The translations under genes were made by a program, and so were the position numbers. Below are positions 1 through 12,354 of a stretch of DNA of 32,016 bases, in pieces; positions within the stretch are counted from its first letter, which is position 1, and the number at the start of each line of letters is the position of its first letter. Source of the DNA: a virus (Duplodnaviria > Heunggongvirae > Uroviricota > Caudoviricetes). The stretch is taken from IMG/VR virus record IMGVR_UViG_2541047849_000007. One strand, 5' to 3'. The notes under the pieces were generated by a model. The model did not search any database and was not told the DNA's origin. It saw only the letters and a list, made by a program, of their open reading frames with translations.

Positions 1-633
1 TCATTCATCGTTCGTTGCACGAACGCGCCTGATCTCCACTCTGGCAATCTGATCTGCTGGAATATAGGTTGCCAGAGCTCCCCAGTACTTATCAACCACG
101 CCTTTATACTCTTCCCATTCGTTACTGCCTGAAGGGCTGCTGTGCGTGACGTAAAGAACCATATCGCCTTTATTCCCCAGGGTAAACGGACCGTTAGGCC
201 ACTCTTCAAAGTTCCCTGGCAGCCGTGACATCATACCGGAACCATCGCGAAGAATCACTCTGACCTCGGTAACGCTGAAGCCTGTTTGATCAAACATTGC
301 CTGCCATGCTGAGCTGGTATCGTCAGACCATGAAATATCATTATTCCACAGTAATCTGTACATCCATTTGCGACCGTACCTGCGCCACCACGCACCGCAT
401 GTAACGGCACACAGAAGTGCTGGTGGTGTTGCCAGCCAGGCATTCAGACCTGCCCACATAACAGCCTGGTAAGCCATCATTGCTGTCAGGCCAAAAATCA
501 GCGAAGAAAAAGTCACCTCAATGGGCTTGTGGTGATCCTTCAGTCCCACATTCGCAATAAAATACCCAATATAGCCACTGGTCAGGGTCACCAGTGTTGC
601 CCATGGCAGATTTAACAACGAAACGTCAAACAT
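1..633 (-). CDS. Membrane protein of unknown function (N-terminal TM helices plus soluble C-terminal domain)
   Basis: Track ORF 1..711(-). Preferred start is ATG at 631-633 with GGGAGA RBS about 5 nt upstream; stop at 1-3. Hydrophobic segments LPWATLVTLTSGYIGYFIANVGL, VTFSSLIFGLTAMMAYQAVMWAGL, AWLATPPALLCAVTCGAWW. No family recognised. Confidence 0.55.
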   Translation of the reverse strand: MFDVSLLNLPWATLVTLTSGYIGYFIANVGLKDHHKPIEVTFSSLIFGLTAMMAYQAVMWAGLNAWLATPPALLCAVTCGAWWRRYGRKWMYRLLWNNDISWSDDTSSAWQAMFDQTGFSVTEVRVILRDGSGMMSRLPGNFEEWPNGPFTLGNKGDMVLYVTHSSPSGSNEWEEYKGVVDKYWGALATYIPADQIARVEIRRVRATNDE

Positions 634-670
634 ATTTTCTCCCTGCATCCTGAATACTAAAGAGAGAGCA

Positions 671-707
671 TAAAAAAAGCACGGTAAGGGGTCTACCGTG
701 CTTTTAT
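671..707 (-). terminator. Rho-independent terminator downstream of mor-like gene (bidirectional hairpin)
   Basis: Perfect 9-bp inverted repeat AGCACGGTA / TACCGTGCT with 7-nt loop. Flanked by A7 on plus strand (U7 after the hairpin on the minus-strand transcript) and by TTTTA on the plus side. Confidence 0.55.
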
Positions 708-747
708 ACAATAAGGAGATTTTTGAAAGGACTTTAACAAGCAGGAA

Positions 748-1146
748 TTATCTGGATTTGTTAACGTCTTTCGTCTCCTCTGGCAGATCTTCATCAAACA
801 ACCTGCCCTGCATCCGATCCAGTTCTTCTTTTCTGACCCGCTTAACCACGCTGTAGACCCACTGAAGCGAAACACCAAACTTGCGGGCCAGTTCGTGGTG
901 GTTGCGTCCGTTAAACTCCCTGAAGATTTCCCGGTCGCGCTGACTGACCTTCCATACCATGCCCATCGGGAAATAAACGTTTTGCCCGCCCCAGACCTGC
1001 ATCATTCGGTTCGCGACGGCCTGACCAATCTGGTCGGCAATTGCGGGCTCAATATCAATAATCTCGCGAACGGTCTCAGAGGTATGCTGTGCCAGCTCCA
1101 CCAGGAGTTCCGGCCCTTTACTTCGAAACTGATTCAGGTCGCTCAT
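748..1146 (-). CDS. mor: Mor/C-family transcriptional activator (Mu middle/late activator family)
   Basis: 132 aa. C-terminal FREFNGRNHHELARKFGVSLQWVYSVVKR matches the Mor/C HTH region as I remember it. ATG at 1144-1146 with GGGAG RBS. Lies directly downstream of the GemA-like gene as in Mu. Confidence 0.7.
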   Translation of the reverse strand: MSDLNQFRSKGPELLVELAQHTSETVREIIDIEPAIADQIGQAVANRMMQVWGGQNVYFPMGMVWKVSQRDREIFREFNGRNHHELARKFGVSLQWVYSVVKRVRKEELDRMQGRLFDEDLPEETKDVNKSR

Positions 1147-1570
1147 GTTTTACTCCCGCAGCTCTGTGCTGCCACTTCTTCAGTTTCTCAATAACACTGC
1201 TTGCCTGTTCAGTATTGAGCCAGCGCAGGGCGCTGATGCCCGTTTCCCGCTTGATCCACCGCGCTAATGCATTTTCTGAACGGTCACGAACAATGCCGGC
1301 AGCAGCCATTTCAAGCCATAGCGCACGGATTTTCCTGGACTGCGGATGGTTATCCAGCGGTAAACCGGAGCTGGCTTTTCCGGCAGGCTTAACGCGAAAG
1401 CCTTTCCTTTTCATGGATTCCAGCACGCAGTTTAGTTGTGTGGTATCCATTCCTTTGGTTGAGGCTTTACCGGTCAGCCCCTGTAACATCTGGCGATAGG
1501 TGTCTTCATCCATACCCAGTTCATTACGGGCAATATGAATGAGCTGGATAAGACGTTGTTTAGTCATCAT
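1118..1570 (-). CDS. gemA: GemA-like protein (Mu gp16 family, DUF1018)
   Basis: About 150 aa from ATG 1568-1570 (AAGGAG RBS 5 nt upstream). N-terminal KQRLIQLIHIARNELGMDEDTYRQML resembles the GemA family. Overlaps the mor start by 29 nt. Confidence 0.65.
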   Translation of the reverse strand: MMTKQRLIQLIHIARNELGMDEDTYRQMLQGLTGKASTKGMDTTQLNCVLESMKRKGFRVKPAGKASSGLPLDNHPQSRKIRALWLEMAAAGIVRDRSENALARWIKRETGISALRWLNTEQASSVIEKLKKWQHRAAGVKHERPESVSK

Positions 1571-1775
1571 CGTTGCTCCTTTTACCTGCGCCACCGATAT
1601 AATCGACATATAAAGGAAGCGCCACAGGCCAGCACAGGAACATCACCGACCAGCTAATCCAGTAGCCGGCACCACTGTAACGTGAATAAAACCCTGAACG
1701 GCGGTGCAGTTCAGCAGTACACCAACCGACAAAACAATACCAGAACAGGGCACATACAACAGATTCAGCCGTCAT
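1560..1775 (-). CDS. Small hydrophobic protein (71 aa), unknown function
   Basis: Internal ATG 1773-1775 of track ORF 1560..1931, preceded by a G-rich RBS. Product is largely hydrophobic (VVCALFWYCFVGW ... WSVMFLCWPVALPLYV). Overlaps neighbouring genes on both sides. Confidence 0.35.
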   Translation of the reverse strand: MTAESVVCALFWYCFVGWCTAELHRRSGFYSRYSGAGYWISWSVMFLCWPVALPLYVDYIGGAGKRSNDDD

Positions 1776-1995
1776 TCTGAATATCCCCCCAACTGATATG
1801 AATATTACGGGCAGCAATGACAGGGTCGTTATTCCACCATGCACCTGACATGTATTTTTCAACCTGTTCGCGTCCGGCAATAACACCAATTGTGATCCCC
1901 GGCCTGACGTTCTTAAAAAAGGCGCGGGCAAAAAGGTATCTGGCAGATATTCGGCAGGCTTTTAATTTCCGGCTGTTACCTGATAGCGTAATCAT
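1765..1995 (-). CDS. Hypothetical protein (76 aa)
   Basis: ATG 1993-1995 overlaps the stop of the upstream gene (ATGA coupling); GGAGG RBS. Confidence 0.45.
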   Translation of the reverse strand: MITLSGNSRKLKACRISARYLFARAFFKNVRPGITIGVIAGREQVEKYMSGAWWNNDPVIAARNIHISWGDIQNDG

Positions 1996-2676
1996 CTGGC
2001 CTCCAGTTTCTGTTGTTCCTGCCCACTGACCGGGCGGTGCAGTCTGACGTTCTGCCCTTCACGAAACCCCGCATAGCGCGAGGCGTCGCCATTGCGGCTT
2101 CTTCCCGGTTTACGCGCCCTGGTGGTTTGCGTCTGCGGGTATTTATGTTCCAGCCACTGCTGCATCAGTTCACGCTCATCATCGGTCAGGGCAAAGGACT
2201 GTATTTCACTGATAACGGCCAGCACCCAGCCTTCGGCAAACTGGTCTCCACGGCTGGTGCGGGTGGCGGTTTTTATTCTTTTGTTCTGTGCACTGATATA
2301 CTGCTGACGCGCCTTTTTCAGCTGACGGGCCAGCACTTCCCAGGTGTATGCAGCCAGTGCCGCACGTTCCCGGTTGCCGTAGAACCCCACAGACGGATGC
2401 GTGCCGGGGTGAATGATGGAGTTAACACCAAATACCTCGCGGATGATGTTCATCAGGCCTGGCATGTAGCGCGGTGGACGGAGACTGCCTGTCGGCCAGT
2501 AGTGACTGATGGTTTCATCAATATCACTCATAGCAATGTCGGAATGTGTGATGCCGTGAACATCCATCAGTTTACGGGCTCGGCGCAGTGCCAGAGCGGC
2601 CTCGTGCGGGTTGCCGGATGCGGCCAGCGCCAGCAACTTTTTCAGTTTCTCAATGTGTTTATTCTGGTCTGTCATT
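1992..2676 (-). CDS. Hypothetical prophage protein, DUF2786-like N-terminus
   Basis: Start ATG 2674-2676 (GGAGAT RBS). N-terminal IEKLKKLLALAASGNPHEAALALRRARKLM resembles the DUF2786 signature from memory; needs HMM confirmation. Confidence 0.5.
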
Positions 2677-2887
2677 GTTCTGTATCTCCGGTATTTTTCT
2701 GCCGTTTCCATGCCCGGACAGCGTCGGACAGCTCTTTCAGGCTGTATGCTGCTTTAAGCTTTTCCCATAACCACTGTGTTGTTATGTGCATCAGCAGGGC
2801 AGCCAGGGCTGCCCCCGCACTGAGGCATGTCGCCAGGCCAGTAAGAATCAGTATCCATGCGGTGATTTCCCTGAGTATGTCAGCCAT
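2672..2887 (-). CDS. Small membrane protein (71 aa)
   Basis: ATG 2885-2887 with GGGAGG RBS. Central hydrophobic stretch AWILILTGLATCLSAGAALAALLM. Confidence 0.45.
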   Translation of the reverse strand: MADILREITAWILILTGLATCLSAGAALAALLMHITTQWLWEKLKAAYSLKELSDAVRAWKRQKNTGDTEQ

Positions 2888-2901
2888 TGAATGCCTCCCG
2901 G

Positions 2902-3198
2902 TTACTCGTTCGTGTAAATCACGCCCAGTCGTGCAGCCAGACGTTCCAGTTTTTTCTGTTTGTGGAAGTCAATCAGCCGGTCCATCCCCTGAAGGCGCAA
3001 TTGCTCTGTCATGATTTCCACGTCTGCCAGCTCTGCCGCGAGGTCGCTTTCGCTGCCCTGTCCGTTCAGATTGCGGGCAGCACTGGCCGCCAGTTCAGCG
3101 GCCTCTTCTGTCAGTTTCAGGGCCTGTGCGTCCGGCCCGAAACGCTGCAGGGCCAGACGGTAGAGGGCGGTGCGGGTGAGTATGGTGTTCCGTGTCAT
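2902..3198 (-). CDS. MazG-like all-alpha NTP pyrophosphohydrolase (putative)
   Basis: 98 aa. EExxE-type motif (LTEEAAELAAS) and a second acidic motif (AAELADVEIM) in the arrangement typical of MazG/HisE-type pyrophosphatases. ATG 3196-3198 with GAGGG RBS. Confidence 0.45.
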   Translation of the reverse strand: MTRNTILTRTALYRLALQRFGPDAQALKLTEEAAELAASAARNLNGQGSESDLAAELADVEIMTEQLRLQGMDRLIDFHKQKKLERLAARLGVIYTNE

Positions 3199-3207
3199 GC
3201 CGCGCCC

Positions 3208-3480
3208 TCAGTGCTTCCGGCTGACGGTGATGTGCAGGCCGCCTTCTGCAGTGGTTTCCATCCGGTACGGCACCTCATGCTCTGCCGTGTGGGTGAGTGT
3301 GTTCATCAGTACCTGCAGGGCAGCCGCCTTTCCGTTGGTTGCCACAATGGCCTGTGTGGTCATGCTGATTAGCGCCGTCAGGACGTGCTTCACATCGGTG
3401 AGGTCGCGGCATTCACACTCGTTGACATAGTGTTCAACAAGGGTTCGGGTGCGCTGTCGTGCTTCCTGTGGGGTAATCAT
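3208..3480 (-). CDS. Hypothetical protein (90 aa)
   Basis: ATG 3478-3480 with GGGAGG RBS; ATGA overlap with the downstream gene stop. No family recognised. Confidence 0.45.
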   Translation of the reverse strand: MITPQEARQRTRTLVEHYVNECECRDLTDVKHVLTALISMTTQAIVATNGKAAALQVLMNTLTHTAEHEVPYRMETTAEGGLHITVSRKH

Positions 3481-3671
3481 TGCGAGTCCTCCCTGTCAGG
3501 GCGGGAGAATTCCATGACGGGCACGTCTGCCGAAAAATGCTGGCTGCAGTACGGGCAGACCAGGGTGACGCGTACCGCAGGGATGTGGTATTTACCGGAC
3601 ATCACGGCGATGGCGCTGTGAAAACGCAGGGCTGTTATATCCCTCTCGCACTGAATACATTTAAATATCAT
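3477..3671 (-). CDS. Small Zn-ribbon-like protein (64 aa)
   Basis: Two CxxC pairs (CIQC ... CPYC). ATG 3669-3671 with GAGGAG RBS. Confidence 0.5.
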   Translation of the reverse strand: MIFKCIQCERDITALRFHSAIAVMSGKYHIPAVRVTLVCPYCSQHFSADVPVMEFSRPDREDSQ

Positions 3672-3768
3672 GATTTAATTCTCCTCTGTTTCCGGCGTGC
3701 AGAAGCCCGCGGCGCTGACGCCGGAATAAAAAAGAAAATGTTTTTATTAAATAATTAACGTGGTGTGT

Positions 3769-4299
3769 TTACTGCACATCCTGCTCAAAAGGAATTATTG
3801 AAAAATCCTCAATGTCGCTTTTAATGGAAATACCGGGAATATTTTTCACGGCCTCTTTTTCATTCAGGATAGCGTCTTTATTTATTTCCTCTTTTACACG
3901 AATAAAGCGCTCAAGCCCCAGACGTCTCAGTAATTCAATAACATTATCCGCCCCACGGATACTGACTGATGGCGGACGGTTTCGCCACTGCACCTCGCCG
4001 GTGGTAAGGTTAGCGAACTTCACCTTCCCGTTGCCGGTCAGTTCATCACGGTGCGCCTCACACCATGTCTGGATACCGGACTGCAGTTCGGCCATGCGTT
4101 TTTTCAGGCTCTCGGTGAGCGGGGCATAACGTGCGGTGATATCGCCAATGGCGTCATTCATTTCTGTTTCAGCCCTGACCAGTTCACGTTGTGCGTCACC
4201 GAGTAGTCTGATTCCCTCAATGACCTCTTCGCGTGTCCCTGGTACCCAGAGTGCCGCTGCGGCCTTGATACGTTTTGCCCCTTTTGTACTTTTTGCCAT
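3769..4299 (-). CDS. gam: Gam-like host-nuclease inhibitor (Mu Gam family)
   Basis: 176 aa with the size, charge pattern and coiled-coil character of Mu Gam. Sits downstream of transposition gene B as in Mu. Confidence 0.65.
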   Translation of the reverse strand: MAKSTKGAKRIKAAAALWVPGTREEVIEGIRLLGDAQRELVRAETEMNDAIGDITARYAPLTESLKKRMAELQSGIQTWCEAHRDELTGNGKVKFANLTTGEVQWRNRPPSVSIRGADNVIELLRRLGLERFIRVKEEINKDAILNEKEAVKNIPGISIKSDIEDFSIIPFEQDVQ

Positions 4300-4326
4300 A
4301 TTTTATGATTTCTCCGGTTGTGCTGA

Positions 4327-4596
4327 TTACCACAAAGATTCCGGCCACACGACGCGACAGCCGTGCAGTTCGAAAACGCCCTGACGGAAATATCCCCTGT
4401 GGTCATGTCCGGTATACAGATAACAGGCCTTTCCCTGCTCAAGCATGCGCATGCAATGCGCACTCCGGGAAACGCGGATGACAGGTTTGTTACCCCTGAT
4501 GGTGATGCTTTGTACATCCGTGTTCGTCGCCTTAAGCGCCATAATGGCTGACTGCACTTTGCTGATTTGCTGGTTGATACCTGTGGTGGATTTCAT
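4327..4596 (-). CDS. Hypothetical protein (89 aa)
   Basis: ATG 4594-4596 with AAGGAG RBS, immediately after the B stop (TAATAATG). Confidence 0.45.
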   Translation of the reverse strand: MKSTTGINQQISKVQSAIMALKATNTDVQSITIRGNKPVIRVSRSAHCMRMLEQGKACYLYTGHDHRGYFRQGVFELHGCRVVWPESLW

Positions 4597-4598
4597 TA

Positions 4599-5765
4599 TT
4601 AAACTCCTTTGACAACGTCAGCGTTGACCTGTGGAACCCCGATTTCAGCGGCCAGATTCATGGCGGCTATTACCAGGTTACTGACGGCCAGCGGATACAG
4701 CAGGCTGACCATATTTTTACGATGACTTCCCGGATTGCTCAGGCGGGCACGTATGGCATCCACTGCGCTGGCGTCCATAATGTCCGTCAGTTGTTTACCG
4801 GCCCGTTGCAGTTTGAACGTCAGAAATTCTTCAAGGTTATTGTCCAGAGGCAGAAGTTCGACCACCTCACAGCGCTGAACGACTTCACGGACTTCCATAT
4901 TGCGTTCAGACAGTTTTGTCGCCAGTTCCGGCTGGCCAATCAGCACGATGGACAGCAGTTTTTTGAAACCGGACTCCAGCTCAAAAAAGCGTTTGAGGTG
5001 TTTCAGTGTCGGAATGGGCAGACTGTGGGCCTCCTCAATCACCAGAACGTGGCTGAACCCCGCCTGGCTGCTGTCTTTCAGGACGCGATGCAACTGGCGA
5101 AAGCGGGCGTCCTGACTGCGTCTGATGCTTTCCAGTGGTGCGATGGTACTGATAATGGCTTCGGCAATAGCTGCTGCCTTCAGGGTTTTCCCTTTCACAT
5201 CGTTGTCTTCCATAGCGATGATGTATGGCTCGATAACAATTACCGGCGCATTCTCGCGGTTAATACGTTCAGTCAGGTCGCGGCGCAGCGTGGATTTACC
5301 CGCACCGGACTCACCGATGACGGCCATAAACCCACCATGACGGGCTGTCTGGTACAGCGCCTCACGCACGTAGCGAATGTCCGGGGTGGTGAACACATCA
5401 TCAGAACCCTGCATGGCTTCATCGGCGAACGGGTCACGGAAAAGACCAAACGCTTTTTTGGTTGCTGGAAATAACACCTGTTTTTTGAGTAACATATTCT
5501 CTTCCTCACTGAGGCTCGTTTTATCTGTGGTACCCGCTGTACGGGGCGTGGCCGCGCCCTGTACAGCATCAAAACTCTTCGTTGTATCAATCCCCTGACT
5601 TTCCAGCCAGGACGCAAGACGCCGGCGCACTTCTCCGGGGCTGGTGCGGGGCCACGCGTTATGATTCACAATCTGGGCCAGCGTGGCCTCAGAAACATCG
5701 ACAGCTCTCGCCGCCACCGCCTGTGGAATACGGGCCTCTTTCAGTTGCTGCTTCAGTACCAGCAT
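4599..5765 (-). CDS. AAA+ transposition ATPase / target-DNA activator (MuB/TniB-like)
   Basis: Walker A GESGAGKST and Walker B-like VLVIEEAH; N-terminal HTH-like region. Preferred start is ATG 5763-5765 (GAGGAGGG RBS 5 nt upstream) rather than the track start at 5792. Immediately downstream of the transposase. Confidence 0.8.
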   Translation of the reverse strand: MLVLKQQLKEARIPQAVAARAVDVSEATLAQIVNHNAWPRTSPGEVRRRLASWLESQGIDTTKSFDAVQGAATPRTAGTTDKTSLSEEENMLLKKQVLFPATKKAFGLFRDPFADEAMQGSDDVFTTPDIRYVREALYQTARHGGFMAVIGESGAGKSTLRRDLTERINRENAPVIVIEPYIIAMEDNDVKGKTLKAAAIAEAIISTIAPLESIRRSQDARFRQLHRVLKDSSQAGFSHVLVIEEAHSLPIPTLKHLKRFFELESGFKKLLSIVLIGQPELATKLSERNMEVREVVQRCEVVELLPLDNNLEEFLTFKLQRAGKQLTDIMDASAVDAIRARLSNPGSHRKNMVSLLYPLAVSNLVIAAMNLAAEIGVPQVNADVVKGV

Positions 5766-5775
5766 GTTTCCCTCC

Positions 5776-7545
5776 TCAGTTGCCGTTAACAATGCTGATA
5801 ACGCTGCTGCGGGCCGGCGTGGTCAGCGTGGCCATGACTTCATCCAGTGCGGCTTCCGGTACGCCGTCCGGGTACTGTGCTGTTAACTGGCGGTAATGTT
5901 CCGGCGTCCAGGTCAGGCCGTCGGCGCTGAACTTATCGCGCAGGGCTTTCGCGGCCTCCACATGAGTCATGGGACGCTGTTCAGTGCGCGGTCCGCGTAC
6001 GTCAGAGGCCTGACCACGCTTCGGTATACAGGCCGGAAGTGTGGCGTCATCAATATGTTTATACGGGTCAAGCCGCCCGCCGAACGGCAGCGCCTTCGCC
6101 TTGCGTGCGGCAGCTGCATCTGCGGCGTTGTCTGTACCGGTGACCAGCGCTTCGGTTTCTTTTGCCGCCATCTGCGCCGGGGTTTCCGGCAGGGCTTTGT
6201 AACTTTCGCCAAATACCGCCGCGCCTTCAGCAAAGCCAAACTCGTTCTTTCTGACCTCTTCGACCAGGAAGAACGTCTCGTGGCCGTCCTCACCGGTCAG
6301 AACCACCTGTGCCACATCGCTGCGCCACGGGTTACGGGTAATCATCAGTTTTTCACCGACCAGTACGCCCGGTACCGTTGATACGTCAAATTCAGTGCCC
6401 CGGAACGAGACACGAAGTTTTGGCGTGACTTTGCGGAGTTCTGGTGCCGCCACAGCCAGTTCACGACATACCTCAACGGAAGGCGCTTTTTTCAGCTGCT
6501 CAGCAGTAATCTTCAGCCAGATATCCGTGCGGGTTTTACCGTGGCGGCTGTGAACAGCCGTGGCGTTAAAGTGGCTGCGCCATTTCGCGGCCAGCGCGTT
6601 GAGTTCTTCCAGACTGTGAACCGGCCGGAACTTCAGACCCGGCTCCAGCTTGCGTTCGATAATGTCACGCGCCTTTTCCACCTGTCCGGTGGCGCGGGCG
6701 TTATGCGGCTTGTGCGCTATCAGGTCGATGCCCAGTGAGCGGCACATGTTTTTCGTCATACCCGCGGTGTTTGCCGAGCCGGGGTCGAGATAGAGTATTT
6801 TTGGCACGCCGTGCAGCACGTCTGCGCCGCCACGCTCCTGCATGGCGTTGATAAGCACAGAACACAGGTTCTCACCGGATTCCGCACCCGTCACATACTC
6901 AACGTAAATCCAGCCGCTGGCATGGTCGGTAATCTCGTAACTCCACACGCGGTCACTGGCGATACGGGCAAGGTTAGCGGGCTTGTTTTTGTAGAATTTC
7001 GCGCTGTCCATCACCTGCAGCCCTTTATGTCCATTGCTCAGGTAGTAAAGCGTGCAGAGTGAGGCGTCAATCTGCCAGACATGATTGGGGTGCAGACTGG
7101 CCACTTCGGTATGCGGTGCAGGGGCATCCAGTTGTTCCGGGTGCAGGCCATAGTTACGCAGGGCACGACTGATGGCATCTTCGGACAACGGGAAAAACTC
7201 ACCGGTGGTTTCATCTGTTCTGCCTGCGGAGATAAAGCCGTTAGCCCGCAGGGTTTCCACTGCATCCGCGATGGAATAGAGACGCTTACCGTTCTTGCGG
7301 GTGGCCTCACGTAGTGTGGCAGATATCAGCGCGGCTTCGTCGCGGGTCAGGGTGCTGCGTCCGGCATCGGCGCGTTTTTTGCGTTTATCAGTCACAGAGA
7401 CCTCCTTCAGCCTGCGCAGCAGAGTGGCGCGGGACATGCCAAGTTCAGCACAGGCAGCGTCGTATATTGCACCGCGTTTACCATGCCCCGCATTACGTGC
7501 CGCGCGGGCTGTTTCAACAAGTTTTTCAGTCAGTGCCGGGGTCAT
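5776..7545 (-). CDS. DDE transposase (Mu A-like, rve/integrase core)
   Basis: 589 aa. N-terminal HTH region, then a catalytic core with candidate DDE residues (HVWQIDAS ... LYLDPGSANT ... downstream E). ATG 7543-7545. Confidence 0.85.
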   Translation of the reverse strand: MTPALTEKLVETARAARNAGHGKRGAIYDAACAELGMSRATLLRRLKEVSVTDKRKKRADAGRSTLTRDEAALISATLREATRKNGKRLYSIADAVETLRANGFISAGRTDETTGEFFPLSEDAISRALRNYGLHPEQLDAPAPHTEVASLHPNHVWQIDASLCTLYYLSNGHKGLQVMDSAKFYKNKPANLARIASDRVWSYEITDHASGWIYVEYVTGAESGENLCSVLINAMQERGGADVLHGVPKILYLDPGSANTAGMTKNMCRSLGIDLIAHKPHNARATGQVEKARDIIERKLEPGLKFRPVHSLEELNALAAKWRSHFNATAVHSRHGKTRTDIWLKITAEQLKKAPSVEVCRELAVAAPELRKVTPKLRVSFRGTEFDVSTVPGVLVGEKLMITRNPWRSDVAQVVLTGEDGHETFFLVEEVRKNEFGFAEGAAVFGESYKALPETPAQMAAKETEALVTGTDNAADAAAARKAKALPFGGRLDPYKHIDDATLPACIPKRGQASDVRGPRTEQRPMTHVEAAKALRDKFSADGLTWTPEHYRQLTAQYPDGVPEAALDEVMATLTTPARSSVISIVNGN

Positions 7546-7560
7546 AGCTTGTCTTCCCTG

Positions 7561-7878
7561 TTATCCGATTCTGGCGGCAATTTTTCTGGCACGGTCGCGC
7601 AGGGTTTCGCCATCGCAGGTTTTCACCACGTTATTTACCGGTTGCGGCGCAACTGCCGGGCGCAATGCTGACTGATGCTGCAGACGTCTTATCTGCTGCA
7701 TCAGCATCACTTCCATCGTCAGTACAAACGGATGCGCCTCCTGTGCGGGTACGCAGATTTCACCGGAAGGTGTCACCACGCGGAAACCCTGCACCATCTC
7801 CGGCAGCAGATTACACAGTGCGTGCCCCAGTGCCTCCGGGCTGTCCATCAGGATATTTTGTGTGTTATCCGTGTTCAT
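7561..7878 (-). CDS. Hypothetical protein (105 aa)
   Basis: ATG 7876-7878 overlaps the upstream stop (TAATG). No family recognised. Confidence 0.4.
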   Translation of the reverse strand: MNTDNTQNILMDSPEALGHALCNLLPEMVQGFRVVTPSGEICVPAQEAHPFVLTMEVMLMQQIRRLQHQSALRPAVAPQPVNNVVKTCDGETLRDRARKIAARIG

Positions 7879-8795
7879 TACTGCATGCCCTCCGGTCGGT
7901 TGATTTCAGGCTCCGGTTCGGTCAGCCATGCGGGGACATCGTTACCCGATGGTGCGGCATCAAGGTCGAACGTCTCACGCAATGCATGAACACTGCGTTC
8001 AATCTGGCAGACCAGACCGGCCATGAAATCTCTGGGGGTATCAATCATGTTTTTACTGCAGTATTCACACAGGGTTTCAAAGGCACCGGAGAGCCGGACG
8101 GCGATGGCAGATTCCGCCTCAACCGCTAATGCGGTCACTTCCGCCCGCAGCTTCTTCACCTCTTCATCAGGCTCAGGCGGTTGAATACGGGATTTCTTCT
8201 CCAGTTTTGTGGCCAGTTCGTTGATTTTTTCGTCCTTTCCGGCAAGCACCTGTTGCTGAGCTGCGTTAGTTTCGCGCGCTTCACGCAGGGCCTGGCGAAG
8301 TTCACGTACTGACATGCGATCAACATCATCAAGCGTCAGGCCGGCAACTGTGCCGCCGTCGGCCAGTTCGGCAAGGTCTTCATCGTCTTCAGCAACAAGT
8401 TCAAATAATTTTGCCTTACCCAAAAGCGACAACGTTGTCGCTTTTGGCTCTAGTTTTGGTGAAAGGTATTTCAAAGATGCTTTCATCATTCGTTGTGCTG
8501 CGCGCACGTGCAAACCAAGTTGTTCTTCTACAATTCCAACAAAGTCCCCGTGTGGCTCATTTTCTTTTAAGATGATCAGCCGTTTACCCGCTTCCAGCAT
8601 AGATTCAGCACTCTGCGCCATATAAAAACGTGCTTCGTGAACGATGCGATCACGTTCATAAGGCAGTCCATCACCAAACTGCTGCATGATCTCCATGCGA
8701 TGCTGTGTCATGGCATTCAGGCTGACGTTGAGATCATCCGACAGCGGTACCTCGGCGTTCAGTTCAGTGTTAACCGGTGATTTGGTGCGTCCCAT
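7878..8795 (-). CDS. Hypothetical protein (305 aa), acidic coiled-coil C-terminal half; possibly DUF3102-like
   Basis: ATG 8793-8795 with AAGGAG RBS. Family assignment is tentative and from memory only. Confidence 0.45.
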   Translation of the reverse strand: MGRTKSPVNTELNAEVPLSDDLNVSLNAMTQHRMEIMQQFGDGLPYERDRIVHEARFYMAQSAESMLEAGKRLIILKENEPHGDFVGIVEEQLGLHVRAAQRMMKASLKYLSPKLEPKATTLSLLGKAKLFELVAEDDEDLAELADGGTVAGLTLDDVDRMSVRELRQALREARETNAAQQQVLAGKDEKINELATKLEKKSRIQPPEPDEEVKKLRAEVTALAVEAESAIAVRLSGAFETLCEYCSKNMIDTPRDFMAGLVCQIERSVHALRETFDLDAAPSGNDVPAWLTEPEPEINRPEGMQ

Positions 8796-8805
8796 TGATT
8801 ACTCC

Positions 8806-9120
8806 TTACAAACGACTACCTGAAATGACACGTTGGTTGATTTCGTTAATGCGATCCTGTGCACGTGCCATCTCGTTACTGTGGGCCATGGCGATCTGCA
8901 GCAACTGGATGCCCGGTGCGAAACGCCCGTTTTCCAGTTTCAGGGCCAGTCCTTCTTCAATGAGGGTGTTGAGTGCCCGGTTGATGTTTGCCGGTGACTC
9001 GTGCAGTGCTGCCGCCAGTTCACCATTGGAAATACCGTTCAGGGCATGACCGCGCAGCGCTTTGAGTACCCGGAGGATGCGACTGCCGGAGCTTGAAACA
9101 TTCGTCTTACTCATCTGCAT
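8806..9120 (-). CDS. Winged-helix DNA-binding regulator (putative)
   Basis: ILRVLKALRGH ... ISNGELAAALHESPANINRALNTLIEEGLA resembles MarR/IclR-type winged HTH. An alternative start at ATG 9112-9114 has better GAGG spacing. Confidence 0.5.
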   Translation of the reverse strand: MQMSKTNVSSSGSRILRVLKALRGHALNGISNGELAAALHESPANINRALNTLIEEGLALKLENGRFAPGIQLLQIAMAHSNEMARAQDRINEINQRVISGSRL

Positions 9121-9166
9121 ACCTCTTTTGCGATATGTGATAACCTTTTACAAAGAATCAAAATAT

Positions 9167-9355
9167 TCAGGCTGCCTGAGCTGTTGATTTCAGCCCCAGT
9201 TTCACGGCGATTTCATGGGATTTACCGTAACGTGCTTTGCTCTGCCCATTGAGAACGCGGTATACCTCATTGCGGTTGTAGCCGTTTTCTTCTGCCCAGC
9301 GGGTGAAAGTGATCCCGCGCTGGCGGAAGAGAGCTTTGACTTGTTCTGCAGTCAT
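9167..9355 (-). CDS. ner: Ner-like DNA-binding protein (first gene of early operon)
   Basis: 62 aa. RYGKSHEIAVKLGL resembles the Mu Ner/Nlp C-terminal helix region. AAGGAG RBS. Sits directly downstream of a strong sigma70-like promoter and diverges from the repressor gene. Confidence 0.55.
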   Translation of the reverse strand: MTAEQVKALFRQRGITFTRWAEENGYNRNEVYRVLNGQSKARYGKSHEIAVKLGLKSTAQAA

Positions 9356-9402
9356 CGTTGTCTCCTTTGTTGATGCAATGATGTTTGCCTTATGTGTGAT
9401 AG

Positions 9403-9431
9403 ATTATGGTGCAGATTATCTCACCAGTCAA
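9403..9431 (-). promoter_or_regulatory. Early promoter (Pe-like) with overlapping putative operator repeats
   Basis: On the minus strand: TTGACT (-35; plus 9426-9431), 17-nt spacer, CATAAT (-10; plus 9403-9408). Direct repeats AGATTAT at about 9401-9407 and 9413-9419 overlap the -10 and spacer. Confidence 0.5.
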
Positions 9432-9455
9432 CTTAAAGAGTGCAGAAAAACTCAC

Positions 9456-9794
9456 ATGATCGGGTTACGTATTAAAGAAGAAAGAGAGCGTCTATCTCTT
9501 ACACAGCAAGGGTTGGCTGATGCTATCGGTGTGGCAAAGAGAACTTTTATTGATTGGGAAAAAGATCGCACTTCTCCTACTGCAGTGCAGTTATCTGCAC
9601 TATCAGAAATCGGTGTAGATGTTTTGTATGTAGTTACTGGGGTGCGGAGTCAGCCTGTTGTTGCACCTTATATGTCACAAGAAAAGAAAGAGTTAATGGA
9701 TGCATTCGACGAGATGAGCCCCGAACAACGGAGGGCAATTCTTGAGGTCGGCAAAGTCTTCATTCAACCCAAACCAAGCAAACTCGCAGGCTGA
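9456..9794 (+). CDS. XRE-family HTH repressor (lysogeny repressor candidate)
   Basis: ATG 9456. Classic HTH_3 region LSLTQQGLADAIGVAKRTFIDWEKDRTSP. Divergent from the early operon. The track ORF begins at an upstream GTG inside ner and is not preferred. Confidence 0.7.
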   Translation: MIGLRIKEERERLSLTQQGLADAIGVAKRTFIDWEKDRTSPTAVQLSALSEIGVDVLYVVTGVRSQPVVAPYMSQEKKELMDAFDEMSPEQRRAILEVGKVFIQPKPSKLAG

Positions 9795-9880
9795 TTCTGA
9801 CCTGGACAGAAAGGACAGGTGGTTGATCTGGATGCTTTCAGAAAACGCCGTCAGTAGCATGGCAGAAATCGGCGGGCTTA

Positions 9881-9914
9881 CCGGAAAGCACTGTACTTTC
9901 CGGTTATGGCTTTT
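9881..9914 (+). terminator. Rho-independent terminator after repressor gene
   Basis: CCGGAAAG-cactgta-CTTTCCGG (8-bp perfect stem) followed by TTATGGCTTTT. Also sits at the 3' end of the convergent dam gene. Confidence 0.55.
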
Positions 9915-10677
9915 AGAAATTGCAGATCACCAGCTCACGGCGTGGAGTTGATTTGCCTGCCAGACTGTAGTTGATGTTCACTGTCTGTATGTTCAGTCCA
10001 GTGAACACCTCGCGCATCTGCGGGATGTCGTTCACCGAAATTATCATCTTTCCTCTGATGCACCGGGCCAGCTCTGCCAGCCGCGAGTAGTTCCCTTCAG
10101 GAAAATCCACACCATAGCCTTCTGTACCCAGATACGGCGGGTCACAGTAGAACAGCGTGTGCGGACGGTCATAGCGCTCAATGCACTGTTGCCAGTCCAT
10201 GTGTTCTATCACCGTTCTGGAAAGCCGCAGGTGTGCCGCTGACAGTTCTTCCTCGATACGCAGCAGGTTGAAGCGTGGCGGGGATGTGGTGGAGGTGCCG
10301 AAGCTGTGCTCTGCCACCTTGCCGCCAAACGCCTGCTTCTGGAGGTAGTAGAACCGTGCTGCACGCTGGATATCCGTCAGTGTTTCTGTCGGGGTGATCT
10401 GCAGCCATTTGTAGATCTGCCGGCTGACCAGCGCCCATTTGAACTGGCGGACAAATTCTTCCAGATGATGTTTTACCACCCGATACAGATTTACCAGTTC
10501 ACCATTGATATCGTTAATGACTTCGAGCTTACCAGGTGTCTTAAGAAAATAGAGCGCTGCTGCGCCGCAGAACGGCTCCACGTAACATTCATGCGCCGGA
10601 AACAGCGGCAGGATGTGTTTTGCCAGGCGACGTTTGCCACCAATCCATGGAACGATGGGTAATGTCTGCATTTTCAT
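9913..10677 (-). CDS. dam: DNA N6-adenine methyltransferase (Dam/D12 class)
   Basis: 254 aa. Motif I region VEPFCGAAALYF and catalytic motif IV DPPY (FYCDPPYLGTEGYG). Confidence 0.85.
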   Translation of the reverse strand: MKMQTLPIVPWIGGKRRLAKHILPLFPAHECYVEPFCGAAALYFLKTPGKLEVINDINGELVNLYRVVKHHLEEFVRQFKWALVSRQIYKWLQITPTETLTDIQRAARFYYLQKQAFGGKVAEHSFGTSTTSPPRFNLLRIEEELSAAHLRLSRTVIEHMDWQQCIERYDRPHTLFYCDPPYLGTEGYGVDFPEGNYSRLAELARCIRGKMIISVNDIPQMREVFTGLNIQTVNINYSLAGKSTPRRELVICNF

Positions 10678-11462: not shown

Positions 11463-12011
11463 TTACGTGTTTAATGAACGTAAGTGAGGTTTATCCGCTG
11501 TCTGCATAATCCCGATAGCCAGTGCGAGGGGAAGCAATTCCGGGGAAACTCTTTCAAACAGCGATTCCCATTCTCCTCTCGCCATCACTCTGTCCAGCCC
11601 GCCCTCCAGCTGCATTTCAGCAATCTTCCTGATTTCCCGGAACAACGCCGCTTTGATCTCTTCATGCTCAGCTTTATTTTCCGGTGTCAGAATGTATTCG
11701 TCGAAGAACCGGGGAGGCTGGTTAACGGGGGGCATGTTCACCGGGATGTGTTCCTGTATCCCGTACTCCGGGGCTGAAAAACATTTTGTTGTCTGACCGG
11801 TGAGTTTGCGTAACACCTTCATGAGTTGCTCCTGAAGCAGCTCATTCGTCCGACAGATACGCTCGTCGTCCACAACTGCGGCATCGACAATGACGCTTTT
11901 TCCAAATTCCTTTTTCACCATCTCTTTTATACGCGTCAGAACGTAACTTTTACCGCTGCCTACAGGCCCGGACACTCTGACGGTGATGGTCGGCTTCGGT
12001 GTGACTGTCAT
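11463..12011 (-). CDS. P-loop NTPase, small kinase-like fold (unknown substrate)
   Basis: Preferred start ATG 12009-12011 (AAGGAG RBS 7 nt upstream), giving about 182 aa. Walker A GPVGSGKS sits about 15 aa from the N-terminus, followed about 25 aa later by VIVDAAVVDDE, as in small nucleotide kinases. Confidence 0.55.
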   Translation of the reverse strand: MTVTPKPTITVRVSGPVGSGKSYVLTRIKEMVKKEFGKSVIVDAAVVDDERICRTNELLQEQLMKVLRKLTGQTTKCFSAPEYGIQEHIPVNMPPVNQPPRFFDEYILTPENKAEHEEIKAALFREIRKIAEMQLEGGLDRVMARGEWESLFERVSPELLPLALAIGIMQTADKPHLRSLNT

Positions 12012-12039
12012 TCTGTATCTCCTTTGTGAGTGATCCAGC

Positions 12040-12354
12040 GTGTATTCTGCATACCCCGAACACGCCTCTCTCTTAACGCGCTTTAAAATCCTCCGCGCCA
12101 CGCTTTTGCCATGCTGTCTCCACACAACAAGGAGACATTTTCATGAAACCATTCACTTCCCTTACCCGGACACCACGCAACTGGAACTGCGCCGTGAGCT
12201 TGATTACCTGGCAGATCGCAAAATGGTGGAACTGGAGAGGAGACCGTCCGGTGACTGGTTTGCCGATCTGAGTCGCCTTGGTGTGGATATTGTGGAATAC
12301 ACCGTGGAATGCGGCCCCGGTATTGCCCGCCCGGAAAAATACTGGAGTGAGTGA
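12040..12354 (+). CDS. Hypothetical protein, start undetermined (possible frameshifted gene)
   Basis: Protein-like reading frame runs to a TGA 2 nt before the terS ATG, but has no in-frame ATG with an RBS. The only ATG with a strong RBS (AAGGAGA, ATG 12143) is in the adjacent frame and gives a 42-aa Trp-rich product. Confidence 0.3.
   Translation: MYSAYPEHASLLTRFKILRATLLPCCLHTTRRHFHETIHFPYPDTTQLELRRELDYLADRKMVELERRPSGDWFADLSRLGVDIVEYTVECGPGIARPEKYWSE
12066..12090 (+). promoter_or_regulatory. Candidate late promoter motif, copy 1 (head of late operon)
   Basis: CTCTCTTAA-cgcg-CTTTAAAATC. Shares the TCTTAA-N4-CTTTAA(A/T)ATC pattern with sites at 23227 and 29577. About 50 nt upstream of the first late-operon RBS. 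Confidence 0.4.

Follow-up and report, generated by a model that had tools for sequence, protein, structure and literature searches.

What is encoded in the run of small genes between the transposition gene B and gemA of a Mu-like prophage, and are these genes directed at the host or at the phage's own programme? The question is raised by a stretch of 32,016 nucleotides (nt) of the tailed phage (Caudoviricetes) recorded in IMG/VR as IMGVR_UViG_2541047849_000007, the whole of which we call the window. An earlier account made from the letters and their open reading frames (ORFs) without database searches, here the sequence-only reading, had described an array of nine small, tightly coupled ORFs at 1560-4596, and had proposed its unrecognised members as candidates for host-takeover or anti-defence functions. 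We find that the nine minus-strand ORFs at 1560-4596 are genuine genes, and we read the block, at a probability of about 0.8, as the accessory ('semi-essential'-type) middle of a single early operon in a transposable E. coli prophage that is a mosaic of Mu and BcepMu. The feature as such is an ordinary and already annotated set of accessory early genes of a common Mu/BcepMu-type E. coli prophage. Three points alone are new: the assignment of the first gene to Kil by remote homology, the companionship of a DUF2786/DUF7168 gene with GemA, and a conserved hairpin following gam that is shared with Mu. The genes of the array, in the order in which they follow B and with lengths in amino acids (aa), are as follows:

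4327-4596, minus strand: o1, 89 aa; Kil-like, the first gene 3' of B.
3769-4299, minus strand: o2 (Gam), 176 aa; predicted Ku-like, DNA-end-binding inhibitor of host nucleases.
3477-3671, minus strand: o3, 64 aa; Zn-ribbon protein with the pattern CxxC...CPxC.
3208-3480, minus strand: o4, 90 aa; no assigned function, with an ATGA overlap with the o3 stop.
2902-3198, minus strand: o5, 98 aa; predicted MazG-like all-alpha nucleoside triphosphate (NTP) pyrophosphohydrolase.
2672-2887, minus strand: o6, 71 aa; small single-pass membrane protein.
1992-2675, minus strand: o7, 227 aa; DUF2786 plus DUF7168.
1765-1995, minus strand: o8, 76 aa; basic, no assigned function, with an ATGA overlap with o7.
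1560-1775, minus strand: o9, 71 aa; probable membrane protein with two hydrophobic segments rich in aromatic residues.

The number, strand and coordinates of these ORFs between B (4599-5765) and GemA (1118-1567) stand as first described, and the same nine coding sequences are called by the Prokaryotic Genome Annotation Pipeline (PGAP; RefSeq) in identical E. coli chromosomes. Between B and GemA there are ten junctions, which measure, in nt and with negative values for overlaps: B to o1 2, o1 to Gam 27, Gam to o3 97, o3 to o4 -4, o4 to o5 9, o5 to o6 14, o6 to o7 -4, o7 to o8 -4, o8 to o9 -11 and o9 to GemA -8. The spacing that had been claimed, overlaps or gaps of fewer than 30 nt, hence holds for nine of the ten and fails at the 97-nt gap between Gam and o3, to which we return below. 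The further claim that every gene has its own ribosome-binding site (RBS) is borne out by a Shine-Dalgarno (SD)-like motif 4-12 nt 5' of each of the nine starts. Conservation, the point on which the sequence-only reading had staked the array, is found throughout: all nine ORFs match a PHROG family (E 5e-15 to 2e-76), the full-length copies in close IMG/VR relatives (23-39 found per gene) are nearly all intact, and in the most divergent comparison among these relatives the nonsynonymous rate (pN) is below the synonymous rate (pS) for each gene. Constraint by this measure is weakest in o4, o6 and o8, and these three are also short, without a Pfam family and rare or absent in distant relatives, as annotation artefacts would be. 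We regard that view of them as highly improbable, for each matches a PHROG family over its full length (E 1e-41 to 1e-55), stays intact in every close copy or almost every one, and has both an SD motif and a coupled start, and homologues of o8 (76-78% identity) and of o4 (48%) occupy equivalent slots in other genera.

The operon assigned to the block is defined by the order of elements on the minus strand: a candidate Pe, an IclR-type helix-turn-helix (HTH) gene in the position of ner, a DUF3102 gene, a 105-aa ORF, A and B, and after B the nine ORFs, GemA, Mor and a terminator. The elements with their coordinates are:

9403-9431, minus strand: candidate Pe-like early promoter, TTGACT-17-CATAAT, with 10 of 12 consensus matches.
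9303-9794, plus strand: repressor-like HTH_3 gene, from which the candidate Pe faces away.
5776-7545, minus strand: rve-family transposase A.
4599-5765, minus strand: B-type AAA+ ATPase of the ExeA/BcepMu gp08 type (Pfam AAA_22, 3.7e-20); upstream boundary of the array.
1118-1567, minus strand: GemA (gp16 family; PF06252, 1.4e-40); downstream boundary of the array.
748-1146, minus strand: Mor-family transcription activator (PF08765, 1.1e-43); last gene of the operon.
675-705, minus strand: intrinsic terminator at the end of the early operon, a 13-bp stem followed by TTTTTATG.

The terminator at 675-705 is the sole strong minus-strand terminator-like site within 600-9800, and the scan of that span found no strong internal terminator within the operon region. 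The promoter candidate is the top-scoring site of a promoter scan, a call made on consensus match alone; shuffling the sequence yields terminator-like and promoter-like sites at least as often as they occur in the region. Upon induction or infection, a transcript begun at the early promoter would extend over A and B, the nine ORFs, GemA and finally Mor before the hairpin terminator stopped it, and the overlapping stop and start codons would couple the translation of the array genes. Both the co-transcription and the translational coupling are here read from the gene layout.

The mosaic nature of the phage emerges from comparison of the operon with its two best known relatives. A is 68% identical to BcepMu gp09 and B, which carries the RefSeq product name 'ExeA family protein', is 59% identical to BcepMu gp08; neither has BLAST similarity to MuA or MuB. 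Hence, the 'transposition gene B' of the sequence-only reading does lie upstream of the array, but it is of the BcepMu type. GemA and Mor are likewise nearer to BcepMu than to Mu. Gam, in turn, is of the Mu type, and the other eight ORFs have no BLAST counterpart in Mu or BcepMu; in hhalign comparisons of the o3-o9 families with all early proteins of both phages nothing rose above a probability of 34%. This combination of BcepMu-type A and B, a Mu-type Gam and unmatched ORFs is what identifies the phage as a mosaic.

To set the array against a wider background we retrieved 80 gamma-, beta- and alphaproteobacterial genome loci with an alignment of o7 homologues; a first scan of viral contigs had returned only near-identical E. 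coli copies, and it was the alignment-seeded genome scan that gave diversity. In 39 of the 80 loci, BLAST recognises A and B upstream. By the same criterion o1 is found in 27 loci, Gam in 22, o3 in 19, o5 and o9 in 17 each, o8 in two, o4 in one and o6 in none. This comparison of gene content across Mu-like phages, which the sequence-only reading had called for, shows o7 to be widely conserved and o4, o6 and o8 to be sporadic. In the closest non-E. coli relatives, whose A and B are more than 90% identical to those of the window, the slot of Gam is taken by a DUF3164 protein (PF11363, 3e-80), as in BcepMu gp05:

L044, 7795-8406: DUF3164 gene in the Gam slot.
L052, 7494-8105: DUF3164 gene in the Gam slot.
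L070, 7792-8496: DUF3164 gene in the Gam slot.
L098, 7948-8556: DUF3164 gene in the Gam slot.

Gam and DUF3164 thus look like alternative cassettes for one position, 5' of the same hairpin that follows gam in the window. The picture that these sequence comparisons give is of an array made of conserved anchors (a Kil-like gene, Gam or DUF3164, DUF2786/DUF7168, GemA and Mor) combined with lineage-specific small genes, among which o3, o4, o6, o8 and o9 appear to be additions of this kind; the stretch from B to GemA is, by the same comparisons, the most replaceable part of the phage.

The first of the anchors, o1, to which the sequence-only reading had given no label, can be connected to Kil of Mu. 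A hidden Markov model (HMM) iterated from o1 over 4980 ORFs of the 80 loci reached a Kil-family protein in locus L084 at 1.5e-5, which itself matches phrog_6381 at 5.5e-15, and reached Mu Kil at 6.7e-4. From the opposite direction, a profile seeded with Mu Kil matched ORFs of L094 and L097 at 2e-8 and 7e-8, the same ORFs that the o1 profile matches at about 1e-19 and that act as bridging sequences between the two families. With these bridging sequences taken out on both sides, an hhalign comparison of the o1 family (28 sequences) with the Kil family (9 sequences) still yielded a probability of 93.8% and an E of 1.7e-7 over 69 columns, aligning o1 residues 12-85 with Kil residues 7-75 at roughly 16-18% identity. 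The features matched in this alignment include an RP-I-V strand, a proline and a glycine that are invariant in the families, and a C-terminal motif of the form G-C-(R/Q)-hydrophobic-hydrophobic-W. The genomic context agrees: Mu Kil (gp5) is also the first gene 3' of its B, o1 being 15 residues longer and separated from B by the 2-nt gap given above, and each of the 43 loci that have an o1- or Kil-like ORF also has a B homologue upstream of it, the start of that ORF being at most 150 nt from the B stop in 28 of them and at most 550 nt in 41.

Three observations count against this relationship. Mu Kil matches the Kil families of PHROG (2743, 6381 and 2679), whereas o1, in a search taken to an E of 0.01, matches a separate, unannotated family, phrog_2041, and no Kil family; a narrower o1 profile compared with a single Kil sequence gave an hhalign probability of just 19.5%; and a fold search with the o1 model returned only weak and non-specific matches. 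On balance we consider o1 to be a remote homologue of Mu Kil that occupies the position of Kil. Expression of Mu kil makes E. coli cells spherical, as related in PMC3961180 with reference to Waggoner 1989, and a Kil-type o1 would, by homology, perturb host cell morphogenesis. The gene may now be treated as a candidate Kil-type host-morphology effector, and the hitherto separate phrog_2041 becomes linked to the Kil families.

Immediately downstream, the identity of Gam is clear-cut. Its residues 23-169 align with positions 1-148 of the 149 in PF07352 (E 1e-40, 139.6 bits against a cut-off of 28.3), it matches phrog_491 at 5.5e-73, and across 169 aa it shares 62% identity with Mu Gam (BLAST, E 3e-65). 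By homology it would bind double-strand DNA ends and shield them from nucleases of the RecBCD type.

The widest gap of the array separates Gam from o3, and it contains a structured element with copies in other phages, for example:

3672-3768, minus strand: 97-nt intergenic element of the window, with an AT/CU-rich tract at about 3725-3758, a GC hairpin at 3690-3726, AAACAG, and the SD of o3, GAGGAG, at 3681-3686.
L124 (Mu), 6326-6423: copy of the element.
L129 (SfMu), 3264-3354: copy of the element.
L044, 8407-8484: copy of the element.

The RNA fold of the 97-nt element has a z of -4.2, and none of 200 shuffles was as stable. A covariance model (R1), searched against 82 other sequences, matched 20 related loci and Mu at E<1e-3 with three weaker matches; the matches are always on the operon strand, and SfMu, KP12 and Kp4866-3 are also matched. 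The element has no annotation in the Mu record, and an Rfam search with it gave no match at the gathering score, the best sub-threshold models being unrelated snoRNA and leader models. Wherever found, it lies directly 3' of the gene in the Gam slot whatever its neighbours: upstream is either Gam or DUF3164, and downstream is variously o3, a MazG-like gene, a 135-aa ORF or Mu gp11. Across the copies 87.8% of the cells are paired in register against 31-51% in slid controls, and six pairs are changed on both sides; thus, the lower stem GGCGT/ACGCC becomes GGCGCG/CGCGCC in Mu, and the upper stem GCC/GGC becomes GUC/GAC in SfMu and L088. In the window copy, pairing between the CU tract and the o3 SD is predicted at a probability of 0.99. 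Two familiar roles were rejected. As an intrinsic terminator the hairpin at 3690-3726 fails, because the stem is followed by AAACAGAGGAG with no U-run, and it is not among the sites of the terminator scan; it was also rejected as a promoter.

The element is, in our view, most likely an intercistronic RNA that affects the stability or the translation of the distal early genes. The broader proposal, that it is an undescribed cis-acting RNA of Mu, SfMu and enterobacterial BcepMu-like phages which gates translation or stability of the distal genes, we put forward tentatively, at somewhat less than even odds. Two facts pull against it: the SD pairing is strong in the window copy but drops to 0.3-0.9 in the others, and the 3' arm of the hairpin has decayed in four relatives (L098, L070, L073 and L064). 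A different interpretation, that the 97-nt element is a recombination 'linker' between modules or a protein-binding site in DNA rather than a functional RNA, draws some weight from its location exactly where the modules differ upstream and downstream, and from a conservation of the 5' arm and the AT tract that outlasts pairing in four relatives. Yet compensatory changes in both the lower and the upper stem, seen in Mu, SfMu, L088, L085 and L066, and pairing that is specific to the register are not expected of a mere recombination scar, and we hold this interpretation to be doubtful. Under the RNA interpretation, the hairpin following gam would hypothetically set the expression of the distal genes through mRNA stability or through masking of the RBS. 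It may then split the operon into a proximal part (A, B, kil and gam) and a distal part, with the CU-rich anti-SD tract and the SD bracketing the two-part hairpin. An RNase might act on such a gate, or else an RNA-binding protein, for which CsrA comes to mind given the GGA in the loop and in the SD of several copies.

The most persistent gene of the array is o7. Its residues 8-44 match PF10979 (DUF2786) at 43.0 bits (cut-off 23.9, E 4e-11), so the DUF2786-like label given from sequence is correct, and the remainder is DUF7168, with residues 46-189 matching PF23771 at 89.6 bits (cut-off 25.5, E 2e-25). An o7 homologue lies upstream of GemA in 64 of the 80 loci by BLAST and in 67 by HMM, across alpha-, beta- and gammaproteobacteria. 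The DUF2786/DUF7168 gene is thus, by sequence comparison, a widely conserved companion of GemA in transposable prophages. The AlphaFold2 model (mean predicted local distance difference test, pLDDT, 85.7) begins with a helical hairpin, the DUF2786 part, which is followed by an alpha/beta core containing long helices and by a tail of low confidence. The last ~20 residues (1992-2060) form this tail and end in a V-SGQEQ-KLG-like motif that is conserved down to 35% identity; such a C-terminus resembles a short, flexibly tethered linear motif by which a partner could dock. A fold search gave only weak and non-specific matches; PDB searches with sequence and profile returned nothing credible, and a literature search on DUF2786, the RefSeq protein accessions of six ORFs and the hairpin found nothing functional.

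The association with GemA raises the possibility that o7, with its KH-like core, and with it o3 and o4, handle DNA or RNA for the phage itself. They would then work alongside GemA and Mor in transposition, replication or early-to-middle regulation, and the host would not be their target. Besides the position of o7 across the loci, its basic composition (K+R 35 against D+E 23) and the invariant four-cysteine ribbon of o3 fit such a role. At the same time, Mu and BcepMu lack o7, which cannot therefore be essential to the life cycle of transposable phages; as an account of these three genes together we find the proposal possible but rather unlikely.

The remaining small proteins are known chiefly through their families. 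In o3 (phrog_3401, 1.6e-40) the cysteines C5, C8, C39 and C42 are invariant in ten homologues down to 24% identity, consistent with a Zn-ribbon, and all Pfam and NCBIfam zinc-finger matches fall below cut-off. We rejected o3 as an activator of the Mu Com type that would act on the neighbouring hairpin (no Pfam Com match, and an hhalign probability of 22% across 14 columns), and also as a counterpart of Mu gp13 (probability 25-34% over 10 columns). All 34 full-length close copies of o4 (phrog_3691, 1.3e-55) are intact; its pN/pS of about 0.56 marks the weakest constraint of the nine, and it has homologues in one to three of the 80 distant loci. A prophage of Salmonella diarizonae (L057, 7894-8157, plus strand) has in a similar slot an 87-aa ORF with the C-x-C ... 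H-x-L pattern of o4 that BLAST missed. The family is probably wider than the count of loci suggests.

The catalytic candidate of the array is o5, which matches phrog_2245, 'nucleoside triphosphate pyrophosphohydrolase', at 2.8e-34 and with its 98 residues covers the C-terminal half of the 218-position profile. In the MazG/all-alpha NTP pyrophosphohydrolase superfamily the acidic motifs EExxE and ExxD bind metal; the corresponding residues of o5, E31/E32/E35 and E56/D59/E61/E65, are kept in seven of eight homologues (EExxE...ExxD). A homologue is named 'NTP pyrophosphohydrolase family protein' in one RefSeq genome. Two results speak against the assignment: the Pfam PRA-PH match (E 0.047, 14.5 bits) lies below the cut-off of 21.3, and PDB searches with sequence and profile gave no match; the NCBIfam hisI match reaches an E of only 0.035. 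We retain o5 as a putative small MazG-type pyrophosphohydrolase that, by homology, would act on nucleoside triphosphates or related nucleotides.

Of the two membrane proteins, o6 (phrog_3958, 1.7e-41) has a clear transmembrane segment (Kyte-Doolittle 19-residue maximum 2.02, residues 4-36), and neither BLAST nor HMM found a homologue of it in the 80 distant loci. The hydropathy of o9 (phrog_6436, 5e-15), with its two hydrophobic stretches, is borderline (maximum 1.51); in 17 loci its homologues (38-91% identity) are the immediate upstream neighbours of GemA. This is the BLAST count, used since the 36 loci counted with an iterated o9 profile were contaminated by a fused o9-GemA ORF in L052. Finally, o8 (phrog_3681, 4e-54) is intact in 23 of 23 full-length close copies and is present in two of the 80 distant loci. 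The labels that the sequence-only reading had attached to individual products (Gam-like, Zn-ribbon, MazG-like, two membrane proteins) all survive these searches, with the sub-threshold matches of o3 and o5 and the borderline hydropathy of o9 noted above.

How far, then, are these genes aimed at the host? The profile and structure-based searches recommended at the outset delivered PHROG families for all nine ORFs and the Kil link, but no confident PDB or fold match: PDB sequence searches with o1, o4, o5, o7 and o8, and with profiles of o1, o5 and o7, gave nothing credible. The proposed role in host takeover or anti-defence is upheld, by homology, for o1 (Kil) and Gam alone; for the other seven the searches gave nothing that spoke for or against an anti-defence role. 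Such a role could be extended to the rest of the block by supposing that o3, o4, o6, o8, o9 and perhaps o5 and o7 form an anti-defence island, expressed first on entry and inhibiting host immune systems, with o5 destroying nucleotide signals or restoring nucleotide pools. Such an island would be in keeping with small early genes adjoining a nuclease inhibitor, with a content that varies among related phages (o4, o6 and o8 in 0-2 of the 80 loci, Gam alternating with DUF3164), with the relaxed constraint in o4 and o8, and with the fact that the functions of the semi-essential (SE) genes of Mu are 'largely unknown' (PMC3820752). We nevertheless consider it unlikely. Pfam, PHROG, NCBIfam, PDB and fold searches, which included no dedicated anti-defence library, revealed no homology to characterised anti-defence proteins; PADLOC, which covers defence-system proteins and not anti-defence and so has little bearing here, matched none of the nine ORFs. 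The block is moreover stable in E. coli, being at least 80% present in 614 of the 640 genomes that match it, almost all at 95-100% identity, and the retention of o7 with GemA in three proteobacterial classes fits a phage-internal role better. Stability of the block and wide conservation of o7 together suggest that the phage's own programme is served by at least some of the array, and o7 in particular appears from its distribution to behave as a conserved core partner of GemA and not as a variable counter-defence gene.

The genomes behind this figure come from a search with the segment 1000-4700, which matches 640 of 5426 complete E. coli genomes, some copies being 100% identical; 614 of the 5426 have at least 80% of the segment covered, mostly at 95-100% identity. 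The same genes are found in the isolated phage PhiKM (PQ738613.1), which is 98.2% identical to the window over this segment, and in chromosomal prophage copies such as that of NZ_CP126602 (100% identical). The PhiKM record (L002) lacks an o3 call and has in its stead a hypothetical ORF on the opposite strand (7038-7259, plus) that spans the hairpin element; this is probably a mis-annotation. On the side beyond position 1 of the window, the prophage adjoins inaA in strain Ec1117 (L001, 3034-3501) and interrupts kefF in strain MS1494 (L131, 2143-2501), different insertion sites and a disrupted gene being consistent with active transposition or transpositional integration. A block present in about a ninth of complete E. 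coli genomes, with seven of its nine products lacking a known function, offers, by its abundance and its uncharacterised products, a compact target for single-gene toxicity and counter-defence screens.

Outside the early operon, a D12-class N6-adenine DNA methyltransferase (9913-10677, minus strand; PF02086, 1e-28) and a 220-aa ORF (11463-12125, minus strand) with weak AAA/T2SSE-like matches lie between the repressor and the late genes and look like cargo. Just past the Mor terminator, close to the end of the prophage, there is a 210-aa gene (1-633, minus strand) whose product is hydrophobic in its N-terminal half and soluble in its C-terminal half, is matched by nothing in Pfam or PADLOC and is 61-68% identical in four other prophages (L056-L058 and L062); lysogenic conversion or exclusion is a possible role.

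The standing of the array is best seen against the two model phages. BcepMu, through its early region (gp01-gp13), has the same gene order and orientation as the window, with an early operon that is divergent from the late genes, unlike that of Mu; in addition to A and B, the DUF3102 protein (40% identity), GemA (gp02, 44%) and Mor (gp01, 56%) are shared. Between B and GemA, however, BcepMu carries gp07, gp06, DUF3164 (gp05), HU (gp04) and a DUF2528 protein (gp03), which are not homologous to the nine ORFs, and it has neither Gam nor the hairpin element. Mu, in whose SE early region kil, gp6-gp9, gam and gp11-gp14 are followed by gemA and mor, has no counterpart by BLAST or hhalign of seven of the nine array genes, DUF2786/DUF7168 among them, and the semi-early promoter annotated before its gemA (AF083977) was not found in this prophage. 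These results leave the general picture of Mu-like early regions unchanged, while adding a conserved hairpin, newly identified, to the classic early operon of Mu. What the window does share with Mu bears out the position which the sequence-only reading had assigned to the block, that of the semi-essential early region: in the Pe operon of Mu, too, the block comes after B and before gemA-mor, opens with a Kil-type gene (here by remote homology), contains the homologous Gam with the hairpin element 3' of it, and leads into a GemA 36% identical to that of the window and a homologous Mor.

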